Below are positions 31,897 to 41,312 of a DNA stretch of 64,000 nt, in pieces. Below the pieces are notes generated by a model, which was not told the DNA's origin, ran no database searches, and worked only from the letters and a program-made list of their open reading frames with translations. Numbering within the stretch: the first letter of the stretch is position 1; the number at the start of each line of letters is the position of its first letter. This stretch comes from Escherichia coli (GTDB taxonomy: Bacteria > Pseudomonadota > Gammaproteobacteria > Enterobacterales > Enterobacteriaceae). The translations under genes and the position numbers were made by a program. The DNA lies in assembly GCF_003334305.1 (NCBI RefSeq), contig NZ_QOWS01000004.1. The stretch is one strand, 5' to 3'.

Positions 31897-32657
31897 CGGT
31901 TTATCCCCGCTGGCGCGGGGAACACTCACGCGCTGTTACCCAGTCCCTTTTTTTCAGCGGTTTATCCCCGCTGGCGCGGGGAACACCGCCGCGGACTCAC
32001 GAGCAGACCATCACAGACCGGTTTATCCCCGCTGGCGCGGGGAACACGCAGACTATAACGAGGGTCGCACGCGGATCATCGGTTTATCCCCGCTGGCGCG
32101 GGGAACACTACCAAACCGGAATCTTTCCATATAACGGCGGCGGTTTATCCCCGCTGGCGCGGGGAACACTTACTCGCCGGGGAATACGCCCCGCGCCACG
32201 CCGGTTTATCCCCGCTGGCGCGGGGAACACCTTACTCATTCAGAACGCTGCATGAAATATGCCGGTTTATCCCCGCTGGCGCGGGGAACACACCCTCCAG
32301 ATCTCGGGTGTCGGTAATGAAAACGGTTTATCCCCGCTGGCGCGGGGAACACGAGCGCGTGCCGTGCCTGGGTTCATATGATGGCGGTTTATCCCCGCTG
32401 GCGCGGGGAACACGTGGTTGTTTAGGCGGGATTTGTTGCGTAAGTCGGTTTATCCCCGCTGGCGCGGGGAACACCCATTTCATCATGAACGGCGGAAATA
32501 TCGTGGCGGTTTATCCCCGCTGGCGCGGGGAACACTCGTTTCAGTTCAGTTAGATTTATATCCAGCGCGGTTTATCCCCGCTGGCGCGGGGAACACGCTG
32601 GCCGTCGTTTTTACTCAGTAACCGCCAACGGTTTATCCCCGCTGGCGCGGGGAACAC
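31897..32657 (-). CRISPR. CRISPR array 1: 13 direct repeats of 29 bp with 12 spacers of 32 bp (type I-E repeat)
   Basis: CGGTTTATCCCCGCTGGCGCGGGGAACAC recurs at exact 61-bp period from 31897 to 32629; the leader and cas2 lie on the high-coordinate side, so transcription is inferred to run on the minus strand. Confidence 0.97.
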
Positions 32658-32753
32658 ACTAAGCATACATAACTGTTTTTAAACAAATTTATTCCGCATC
32701 AACAATCTACCAACTAAATTAAAACATTTCCTTATTTTTAAAGAACGGATAAC
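32658..32753 (-). promoter_or_regulatory. CRISPR array 1 leader (AT-rich; conserved motif CAATCTACCAACT at 32703-32715)
   Basis: AT-rich non-coding stretch between the last repeat and cas2; shares a motif at identical offset with the array 2 flank. Confidence 0.75.
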
Positions 32754-33047
32754 TTATTGATTATCAACAGGAAGAAAAGAAACCAAACGTAACCCATCCA
32801 AATCCACCGGAATACGTCTGTTTTCTCCCCAGGTCTGAAATTCAAAACCCGACTCGGTATTGGTCGCCCAGGCCATCACCACATTTCCGCAACCAGCCAG
32901 TTGGGTAATTTGCTGCCAGATCATCTCCCGAATACGTTTTGATGTATCACCAACATACACACCGGCACGCACTTCCAGTAGCCAGATTGCGAGCCGTCCA
33001 CGTAAGCGCGGCGGGACATTTTCTGTAACAACCACGACCATGCTCAT
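32754..33047 (-). CDS. cas2: CRISPR-associated endoribonuclease Cas2
   Basis: 97 aa, [34 protein letters not shown]; 1-nt overlap with the cas1 stop. Confidence 0.95.
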
Positions 33048-38515: not shown

Positions 38516-38612
38516 ACGCATCCTCTCGTAAAAAAGACCATCCCAGGTCGGTTGTCCATCTTTCCATCCTTTTCGGTGTATCAACTATTCAGAGAGTCCT
38601 GTCGCAGACATC

Positions 38613-41312
38613 TCAACCAACCTTGCCAATCAATCCTTCCGTAGCCGAATACCCGCAACTTTCGTCATCGTTGACTAAAATCACGTTTGCCATCTCCGGA
38701 TCTTGTCGCTGTTCAATGCACCACAGCCTGAACGCCTCTCCCTCCAGTAAAGAAAACTCATCCCGATGTTTTTTCCACCAGCTTCGGCGCACTCTGACAA
38801 CGCTCATTTCCCATGCGTGAGCACCGGTGGCATAAGGCTTCACCACACCGTCAATACAGGTAGCCAGCCACAGGGAAACAGACTCCTCAGCCAGACGTGT
38901 CGACAGTTTTTCCGGGAGGTAATCGTTGATATTGGCGGCATAGCCGGGCCTGAAGTTCAGCACAAACTTTTTAGCCATTGCGCGATCGCAGTAATATTTG
39001 CCCACTTGCTCCTGCTCGCTGCGGGCAAATCCTTCCGGCATTACCACGTCCTCACCGTAGACGGATTCAATAAGAAGCCGGGCTGCGTATGGCATCTGAA
39101 TAGCACCTTGCTCACGCAGCACACGCTGCGTCAGCCAGATTCGCCCATGATCGGGATAGACAAATGCACTGTTACGCATGGCACTGCCAAACCATTCGTC
39201 GCCAGGAGAGTCGTCCCAGACGGGAGCCAGAATCAGCAATTCAGGGGGGGAACGCTCGTCCTTTCCGTCACGCTTTAACTGACCATTAATATCGCGGATA
39301 TGCCGCTGTAATCGTCCTGCTCGCTGAATCAGCAAATCAACAGGGGCCAGGTCGGAGATCATTTCGTCCAGGTCAATATCCACGCTTTGCTCAATTACTT
39401 GTGTACAAACAATGACTTGCGACGCTCTCTGTAAACTACAATATTTACCAAAGCGTGCCAGTGTCTCCGTTTCAATTCGCTGGCGATCGCTAAAAGCAAA
39501 GCGGCTATGAAAAAGTGAAAGGCTGGAAGCAGGAATGACGCCGCGGGCAAGCAGCTGACGATGAACCTTAATAGCGTCATCGACAGAATTCCGGATCCAG
39601 GCGATGCATTTCCCCTGACTTACCGCCGATTCGATACGCGCAATACACTCTTGTTCACTATGAAGCCAACCCACGCTGACGCTACGCTCAACGTCTTTGC
39701 GCGTCGCTACCCGGTGTGAGTTCACATCGGATTTCGTGACATGCGTCAGCCAGGGGTAATCATCCTTTTCCAGGAACGGAGCTTCTTGCAGGCCCTCTGT
39801 ACCCCGCGCAAAGGCAGCGACGAGTTTGTCGCGCTGCTGTTGAGATAACGTGGCAGAAAGCAAAATAACGCTGTTTCCGCCACGCGCCTGCCGCTCGATC
39901 AACCCTTCAAGAATGCACGACATGTAAGCGTCACAGGCGTGGATCTCATCAGCCAGCAGGATTTTGTTACTCAGCCCCAGAAGCCGCAGATTATTATGTT
40001 TGAACGGCATCACCGCCATCATCGCCTGATCCAGCGTGCCGACGCCAATTTCAGCCAGCAACGCCTTCTTGTTACTGTCGGCAAACCAGGCCGCACATCC
40101 CTGACTGAACGTTTGTTCATCCGGTTCTTCTGACCCGACTAAATCACCAGACCAGAGTGATTCATTAAAGCGGTCCATTAATGTGCGGGCACTATGTGCC
40201 AGCACCAGGCTGGGGCGGGATTCTGGCGAATAGAAAGCAAGCCAGGTTTTGACCAGCCGATCGTACATGGCATTGGCCGTTGCCATTGTTGGCAGACCAA
40301 AAAACAGCCCCTGAGCTTTCCCCGCAGCTATCAACCTGTGCGCCAGGATAAGCGCCGCTTCTGTTTTACCTGCGCCAGTCACATCTTCCAGAATAAATAA
40401 CTGCGGTCCTTGCTGGCTGATATCCAGATCCAGCACCTTTTGCTGTAACGGTGTCGGATTCTCAATAAAAGGAAACAGCGTATTAATTCCGTTGAAAGGC
40501 GCGACTTTTGCTTTTAGAGGAAAGACGGTTAAGGCGTTTTGAGCCTGAATTAAAGTTTTCTGCCAGTAACCTTTAATATCCATTGGGTGTGCGACGCGTG
40601 GAAAAAATCGCGTTGACGAACCCGTCCAGTCTGCGAGCACGACGGTTGCAGAGATATACCAGGAAAGGTGTTTTATAAGTTCAATGCCCTCATCATCATC
40701 CCAGAATGCGGGGATCTCTATGAGCGGAAACAGTGGTTTGATTTCAAGGAGAAAATCTCGTGCTGCAGCTTTGTCTTCAGGCAGAAAATTATCCAATTCA
40801 TCCATACGATCAGGGGGCCGACCATGATGCCCTGTCGTCACGGGCATCCACATTTCTATCACTCGCCTAAGTTTGCGCGGAGAGAGCGAAGATGAAGGAA
40901 GTAACTCCTGACATTCACTTAAATAATGATTCCACAACCAGTAGCCCAGCGTTGAATGAGAGATTTTTTCGTAATTTTTTCTGGCACCTTCCTGAATCTT
41001 GAGTTCAGGGGGCAGGTAAAGTTGTTGAAAAGAGCGGGCAAATTTTCCAATATCGTGCCAGCACAGCAACCAGGCGAAAAATTGAGCCGCCTGTTCCTTG
41101 TCAGAAATCCCTAATTGACGAAAATAATCAGCCAGCCCGAAGCAATTTCTTTTAACCATTAAATAGCCCATCGCGGCTACATCCAGCGAATGCCAGCAAA
41201 GAAGGTGATAGTCGTCGCCCCCGTCTTTCTCGCCGCGTCGGGTTTTTCCCCAGAAATCAAAAAAAGTCACAATATTTTTATCCTTCAGTAAACTTAAAGG
41301 ATATTTACGCAT
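38613..41312 (-). CDS. cas3: CRISPR-associated helicase-nuclease Cas3 (HD nuclease + DEAD/DEAH helicase)
   Basis: 899 aa; N-terminal HD motif (HDIGKF) and helicase motif GAGKTEAAL. Confidence 0.93.
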   Translation of the reverse strand: MRKYPLSLLKDKNIVTFFDFWGKTRRGEKDGGDDYHLLCWHSLDVAAMGYLMVKRNCFGLADYFRQLGISDKEQAAQFFAWLLCWHDIGKFARSFQQLYLPPELKIQEGARKNYEKISHSTLGYWLWNHYLSECQELLPSSSLSPRKLRRVIEMWMPVTTGHHGRPPDRMDELDNFLPEDKAAARDFLLEIKPLFPLIEIPAFWDDDEGIELIKHLSWYISATVVLADWTGSSTRFFPRVAHPMDIKGYWQKTLIQAQNALTVFPLKAKVAPFNGINTLFPFIENPTPLQQKVLDLDISQQGPQLFILEDVTGAGKTEAALILAHRLIAAGKAQGLFFGLPTMATANAMYDRLVKTWLAFYSPESRPSLVLAHSARTLMDRFNESLWSGDLVGSEEPDEQTFSQGCAAWFADSNKKALLAEIGVGTLDQAMMAVMPFKHNNLRLLGLSNKILLADEIHACDAYMSCILEGLIERQARGGNSVILLSATLSQQQRDKLVAAFARGTEGLQEAPFLEKDDYPWLTHVTKSDVNSHRVATRKDVERSVSVGWLHSEQECIARIESAVSQGKCIAWIRNSVDDAIKVHRQLLARGVIPASSLSLFHSRFAFSDRQRIETETLARFGKYCSLQRASQVIVCTQVIEQSVDIDLDEMISDLAPVDLLIQRAGRLQRHIRDINGQLKRDGKDERSPPELLILAPVWDDSPGDEWFGSAMRNSAFVYPDHGRIWLTQRVLREQGAIQMPYAARLLIESVYGEDVVMPEGFARSEQEQVGKYYCDRAMAKKFVLNFRPGYAANINDYLPEKLSTRLAEESVSLWLATCIDGVVKPYATGAHAWEMSVVRVRRSWWKKHRDEFSLLEGEAFRLWCIEQRQDPEMANVILVNDDESCGYSATEGLIGKVG

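Follow-up and report, generated by a model that had tools for sequence, protein, structure and literature searches.

The analyzed window, a stretch of 64,000 nucleotides from Escherichia coli (contig NZ_QOWS01000004.1), carries at positions 31897 to 41312 eight cas genes and an array of short palindromic repeats that are clustered and regularly interspaced (CRISPR). These almost certainly belong to an ordinary, already annotated CRISPR-Cas system of type I-E, which is complete in its open reading frames (ORFs), represents a non-K-12 variant and possesses two arrays. No finding speaks against this identification. Over the surrounding 10 kb, the sequence shows 100% identity with the A7 chromosome (NZ_CP028767.1), A7 being an E. 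coli strain from orangutan faeces. Its RefSeq annotation already contains the array and each of the cas genes, arranged as iap - CRISPR - cas2e ... casA - cas3 - hok - cysH. The locus is thus known and not new, in agreement with an earlier reading of the letters alone (the sequence-only reading), which had described it as an apparently intact member of a well-described family. Being a textbook system in an annotated genome, of a variant present in nearly half of the complete E. coli genomes, it is of little import beyond record-keeping.

Identification of the cas genes

The following cas genes were identified with NCBIfam profiles (scores in bits):

32754..33047, minus strand: cas2e, 97 aa (TIGR01873, 133.8 bits, cut-off 33)
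33047..33967, minus strand: cas1e, 306 aa, GTG start (TIGR03638, 380.6 bits)
33964..34614, minus strand: cas6e/casE, 216 aa (TIGR01907, 283.2 bits; start according to the RefSeq annotation)
34596..35342, minus strand: cas5e/casD, 248 aa (TIGR01868, 161 bits)
35353..36408, minus strand: cas7e/casC, 351 aa (TIGR01869, 441.9 bits)
36420..36956, minus strand: cse2/casB (Cas11e), 178 aa, the signature small subunit of type I-E (TIGR02548, 99 bits, cut-off 28.5)
36953..38515, minus strand: cse1/casA/cas8e, 520 aa, the signature large subunit of type I-E (TIGR02547, 609.1 bits, cut-off 70; start according to RefSeq)
38613..41312, minus strand: cas3, 899 aa, a fused HD nuclease and superfamily 2 (SF2) helicase (TIGR01596 and TIGR01587, both above cut-off)

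All eight proteins exceeded the curated NCBIfam cut-offs for type I-E, and the PADLOC models led to the same assignment (1.6e-183 for Cas8e). The eight co-directional cas genes proposed by the sequence-only reading were therefore borne out by profile searches. The set includes Cse1, Cse2, Cas7e, Cas5e, Cas6e, a single-polypeptide Cas3 and a Cas1e/Cas2e pair, as is characteristic of type I-E. The ATG of cas3 is located at position 41312, the end of the interval. For cas6e and casA the annotated start codons lie later than those of the longest ORFs, resulting in proteins of 216 and 520 aa, respectively. No internal stops were found in the eight minus-strand ORFs. They also contain no frameshifts, as had been stated before, and RefSeq annotates the identical sequence likewise.

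The residues expected for catalysis are present. A full-length alignment to the E. coli Cas1 structure 3NKD showed conservation of E141, H208 and D221, and in Cas3 the residues H86-D87, the Walker A motif GAGKT (K316) and the motif D455-E-I-H were identified by alignment to 4Q2C. H30 of Cas6e was aligned to the catalytic H20 of the K-12 protein. Furthermore, structure 9UER was found to match Cas7 over its full length (E = 1e-187).

The short overlaps described previously could be found at four junctions, namely cas1/cas2 (1 nt), cas6e/cas1 (4 nt), cas5e/cas6e (19 nt) and casA/casB (4 nt). In contrast, cas7e/cas5e, casB/cas7e and cas3/casA are separated by gaps of 10, 11 and 97 nt, respectively.

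CRISPR arrays and leader sequences

The repeats, spacers and leaders of the system are located as follows:

31836..31864, minus strand: degenerate terminal (leader-distal) repeat of array 1, 18/29 matches, 61 bp before the first exact repeat
31865..31896, minus strand: oldest spacer of array 1 (32 nt), between the degenerate and the first exact repeat, at the same position in 8/8 strains compared
31897..32657, minus strand: CRISPR array 1 (on the iap side), with 12 spacers of 32 nt between 13 exact repeats of 29 nt, the "CRISPR" feature of RefSeq
32658..32753, minus strand: leader of array 1, 96 bp, 26% GC, between the last repeat and cas2e
58358..58935, minus strand: CRISPR array 2 (ygcE-queE locus), 10 repeats and 9 spacers, in the same orientation as array 1
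58936..59085, minus strand: AT-rich leader of array 2, with the motifs of the array 1 and K-12 leaders; its outer boundary is approximate

The repeat of array 1 was determined to be CGGTTTATCCCCGCTGGCGCGGGGAACAC. It occurs in 13 mismatch-free copies with start positions 31897, 31958 and onward to 32629 and a period of exactly 61 bp, which is what the sequence-only reading had reported. The number of copies expected by chance is 0 (100 shuffles). Once the degenerate 14th repeat is counted, the array comprises a total of 13 spacers of 32 nt. On the transcribed strand, the repeat RNA has a computed fold with a hairpin of a 7-bp stem (−15.2 kcal/mol, z = −3.2). The Rfam scan at gathering thresholds detected only sok and no CRISPR repeat family. 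This has no bearing on the array, since the repeat search identifies it unambiguously.

The AT-rich leader adjacent to array 1, likewise noticed before, aligns with the leader of K-12 and with that of array 2. Common to all three are the motifs CTTTAA-AATAAGGAAATGTT and GTTGGTRGRTTGT. In the K-12 leader, this is the region where IHF and Cas1-Cas2 direct integration, and it may have the same role here. The palindromic repeat of 29 nt, the spacers of 32 nt and the AT-rich leader beside cas2 are consistent with type I-E.

Array 2 is located about 26 kb from array 1, outside the interval of the sequence-only reading. It has its own leader and is part of the same system. The extent given earlier was therefore correct for the 13 exact repeats, but it lacked the degenerate 14th repeat, the 13th spacer and the second array at 58358-58935. 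The three leader-distal repeats of array 2 (58358-58508) end with ...GGGGAGCTC (GAGCTC), and the first of them starts with T. The remaining seven do not differ from the repeat of array 1 (...GGGGAACAC). Strain DETEC-E601 shows this pattern as well.

The steps by which such a system would act can be derived from its family. Each array, array 1 included, would be transcribed on the minus strand from its leader, and Cas6e is expected to cleave the repeat hairpin at the foot of its 7-bp stem, yielding CRISPR RNAs (crRNAs) of 61 nt. On these, Cse1, Cse2, Cas7, Cas5 and Cas6e would assemble to form Cascade, which would find protospacers flanked by a protospacer-adjacent motif (PAM) and form an R-loop. 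Cas3, with its HD nuclease and helicase, would then be recruited to degrade the target, while Cas1-Cas2 would insert new units of 33 bp at the leader-proximal repeat.

Assignment to a variant of type I-E

The system resembles that of K-12 MG1655 with respect to the chromosomal site, the gene order, the 61-bp period, the homologous leader and the second array at ygcE-queE. The 29-nt repeat of K-12 differs from that of A7 by 2 nt at its end. The amino acid identity to the K-12 proteins is 84% for Cas1 and 83.5% for Cas2, compared to 28% for Cas3, 20% for CasA, 22% for CasB, 28% for Cas7, 29% for Cas5 and 26% for Cas6e. In line with this, the K-12 equivalog models were not reached by Cas3 (NF007248, 423 bits vs. 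569) and CasA (NF007247, 100.5 bits vs. 576).

A second I-E variant of E. coli, "var. B-8552", has been described; in a urological collection, it outnumbered the K-12 type (PMC12736100). The A7 gene lengths of 2700, 1563, 537, 1056, 747, 651 and 294 bp are equal to the published ones. The gene order and the site between iap and cysH are the same, and the identity to K-12 of about 84% for Cas1 and Cas2 and about 20-30% for the other proteins likewise corresponds to this variant (PMC12736100, Table 1). There is no difference in kind between the two; A7 and a few related isolates merely carry rare alleles of Cas6e, Cas7 and Cas3. In 2412 of 5426 complete E. coli genomes (~44%), 80% or more of the 10-kb locus region could be aligned. 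The mechanistic knowledge on type I-E stems mostly from the K-12 variant, although its Cascade and Cas3 share no more than 20-29% identity with those of this more common one.

The nearest relatives outside E. coli are proteins of Salmonella, Klebsiella, Citrobacter and Raoultella with 69-79% identity. The type I-E system of Salmonella enterica (in S. Typhi cas3, cse1-cse2-cas7-cas5-cas6e-cas1-cas2 and CRISPR1) belongs to the same variant family, with Cas6e being 77-79% and Cas3 69-75% identical to the A7 proteins, and the A7 repeat ending ...GGGGAACAC is the Salmonella form. The Salmonella system differs in the species and in the spacer content, and its regulation and the regulatory roles claimed for it are those reported for Salmonella.

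Spacer content and targets

For the analysis of the array history, A7 was compared with DETEC-E601, TUM1887 and H15, whose cas DNA is near-identical. Array 1 contains spacers 1-13 in A7, 1-8 and 13 in DETEC-E601, 1-7, 9, 10 and 13 in TUM1887, and 1-10 and 13 in H15; the array of A7 is a superset of the others. Since all of them share the leader-proximal spacer 13 with A7, the differences are due to internal losses. In array 2, A7 is without five internal spacers that are present in DETEC-E601 and H240 (internal deletion). At least one of the 22 A7 spacers was found in 3752 of 5426 genomes. Both arrays look old and appear to be changing through spacer loss, and the spacer comparison gives no sign of recent acquisition in A7. 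In strain GF47 one spacer has been added after the shared spacer 13, which shows that acquisition does occur in this variant.

The origin of the spacers was searched for in phage and plasmid collections with E values up to 1, resulting in one credible family:

32048..32079, minus strand: spacer with similarity to darB/SNF2 of P1-like phage-plasmids, 29/32 matches

Besides phage D6, this spacer matches about 120 P1-like plasmids, which are non-mobilizable and have a size of ~90 kb. With E values of 0.004-0.02, it is plausible that a P1/D6-like darB was its source. The mismatches to darB are found at crRNA positions 6, 18 and 30, which correspond to third positions of darB codons. In Cascade, these are also the flipped-out bases, which are unpaired with the target. 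The protospacer is flanked by ATT in D6 and by ATA in pNCYU-26-73-5, compared to the consensus AAG/ATG. No P1-like plasmid with an ATG flank, which is one synonymous change away, was ranked above the ATT and ATA forms. The remaining matches, to phages of Pasteurella, Salmonella and Streptomyces (E = 0.2-0.7), were treated as chance, being either weak or extended across a spacer junction.

With up to 6 mismatches allowed, no spacer match was found elsewhere in the 64-kb window. The A7 genome outside both arrays likewise showed none at megablast sensitivity, at which degenerate self-matches could escape. The PLSDB entry NZ_OL790696.1 ("plasmid unnamed", 4.8 Mb) carries both chromosomal arrays and is evidently a mislabelled E. 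coli chromosome, so that its spacer matches are false "plasmid" matches.

These results also bear on the question of whether the locus might be kept mainly for a non-immune regulatory role (porin/OmpR, biofilm) and not for defence against phages and plasmids. For the Salmonella system, which is ~75% identical, effects of Cas proteins on OmpR, porins and biofilm have been claimed (PMC8039139). The age of the arrays, which are common to many strains as judged from the 3752 genomes, and the lack of spacers acquired specifically in A7 would fit such a role. However, a target for crRNA-guided self-regulation is not evident from the searches of the window and, at megablast level, of the A7 chromosome outside the arrays. 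In addition, the similarity of one spacer is to a mobile element (P1-like phage-plasmids), and the spacer gained by GF47 after the shared leader-proximal one represents adaptation in this variant. We regard a mainly regulatory role as quite improbable.

Integrity of the Cas proteins

Open reading frames are no proof of activity, and the A7 lineage carries rare substitutions at conserved Cascade positions. Over 9266 bp (32658-41923), A7 and DETEC-E601 differ by four nucleotides, all of them nonsynonymous, which lead to the changes L161P in Cas6e, F164S and Q42K in Cas7 and H742Y in Cas3. Since TUM1887 and H15 share the protein alleles of DETEC-E601, the four changes are derived in the A7 lineage. 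The exact A7 alleles were found on 5, 9 and 8 contigs, which belong to several separate accessions. Errors in sequencing or assembly are thus an unlikely cause, and the alleles are real and rare ones at the level of the clone.

The conservation of Cas7 was determined with 150 diverse Cas7e representatives plus K-12. Position 42 is a Q in 140 of 145 homologues and a K in none, while position 164 is an F in 142 of 150 and an S in K-12 alone. Among 120 enterobacterial homologues of Cas6e, 119 have I, L or V at position 161, and none has P. The fourth position, 742 of Cas3, is variable (Q, E, H, P or T). Two observations on the spacers belong beside these three changes: the sole plausible protospacer, that in darB, has three mismatches and a non-consensus flank, and neither array contains a spacer specific to A7 in comparison with the other strains. 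These points weigh against a fully active system. The assignment of the locus is not affected by them, but full activity is, as far as the sequence allows a judgement, less certain, with three of the four rare changes at conserved positions. The designation "apparently intact" in the sequence-only reading is accordingly valid for the reading frames and the catalytic motifs only, as judged by alignment, and does not extend to these conserved positions of Cascade.

A possible consequence is that the ORFs are intact and the function is weakened. The missense changes of the A7 clone would then impair the processing of crRNA (Cas6e L161P) or the Cas7 backbone (Q42K, F164S), and the locus would be decaying under relaxed selection though complete-looking. 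In this regard, the four changes are the sole differences from DETEC-E601 in 9.27 kb. Only 11.7% of the Cas7 positions are as conserved as the two affected ones, and the probability that both changes fell there by chance is ~0.014. Where Cas7 is at least 90% conserved, the ancestral allele has the consensus residue throughout (49/49 positions). A proline at position 161 was absent from the 120 Cas6e homologues. In K-12 Cas7, Q42 is among the palm residues that contact the crRNA, and M166 intercalates between bases (PMC5965380). The alignment places this methionine at M167 of A7 Cas7, three residues after F164.

On the other hand, the K-12 protein naturally has a serine at the position equivalent to 164, the exchange of glutamine for lysine stays polar and could still allow contact with the phosphate, and the alleles persist on 5-9 independent contigs. 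Furthermore, the flanking regions of A7 and DETEC-E601 differ by 10 single nucleotide polymorphisms (SNPs) in ~55 kb (5 nonsynonymous, 3 synonymous, 2 intergenic), and neither the SNP density of the cas region (4 in 9.3 kb) nor its ratio of nonsynonymous to synonymous changes (4:0 vs. 5:3) is significantly different from these. An excess of substitutions in cas was therefore rejected, and no claim of selection is made. Taken on the sequence evidence, we consider a weakened function unlikely, if by no means far-fetched. If it were true, the locus would be a natural example of how missense mutations can cause decay while annotation pipelines still rate the genes as intact, and a Cascade partly disabled in A7 could alternatively reflect selection to damp its activity.

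Decay of the operon in other strains, which would also fit a loss of function, is suggested by database entries. Many E. coli "Cas3" proteins of 700-960 aa have C-terminal Pfam domains of Cas1, Cas6e, Cas7 or Cse type, as if in-frame deletions had fused cas3 with cas genes downstream of it.

The nonsynonymous SNPs in the flanks are located at 5915 (fhlA L90R), 18002 (decarboxylase subunit D A17S), 30238 (cysD T97A), 31690 (iap H305N) and 56715 (ygcE K159E).

Promoter region and adjacent genes

In the ordinary type I-E system described here, two noncoding regions adjoin cas3:

38516..38612, minus strand: cas3-casA intergenic spacer, 97 bp, 47% GC
41313..41455, minus strand: AT-rich region directly upstream of cas3, 143 bp, 18% GC, a candidate promoter and putative H-NS-bound region

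The 143-bp block upstream of cas3 is the only strongly AT-rich one. A scan for consensus promoters gave no match in this block; it yielded fewer matches overall than shuffled sequences and is thus uninformative. In K-12, the gap between cas3 and casA holds the Pcas promoter, which is controlled by H-NS and LeuO. This gap has a length of 414 bp in K-12 compared to 97 bp in A7, and the different spacing suggests that the regulation may differ. It is plausible, by analogy, that transcription of all eight cas genes starts upstream of cas3 and is H-NS-sensitive. Like its counterparts in K-12 and Salmonella Typhi, the locus probably stays transcriptionally silenced for most of the time, of which the 18% GC of the block is an indirect sign. 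For the homologous cas locus of S. Typhi, control by H-NS, LeuO and Lrp including silencing by H-NS has been documented (PMC8039139).

A strong terminator after cysH (41906-41875) sets the cys operon apart from the cas locus. Between cas3 and cysH, a type I toxin-antitoxin module hok/sok was found on the minus strand (41507-41801). The Hok ORF (41507-41659) is intact and encodes 50 aa, and the sok RNA is located at 41644-41801 (Rfam, 113 bits). The hok terminator adjoins the AT-rich region upstream of cas3. The annotated A7 locus has the same module beside cas3, while in K-12 sokX alone is annotated where A7 has the intact hok ORF.

At a greater distance from the system, the window contains at ~17800-20650, between ygbN and rpoS, genes for the subunits B, C and D of a non-oxidative hydroxyarylic acid decarboxylase and for a MarR regulator, according to the collinear annotation of DETEC-E601. 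This segment belongs to the mutS-rpoS region, whose variation among strains is known.

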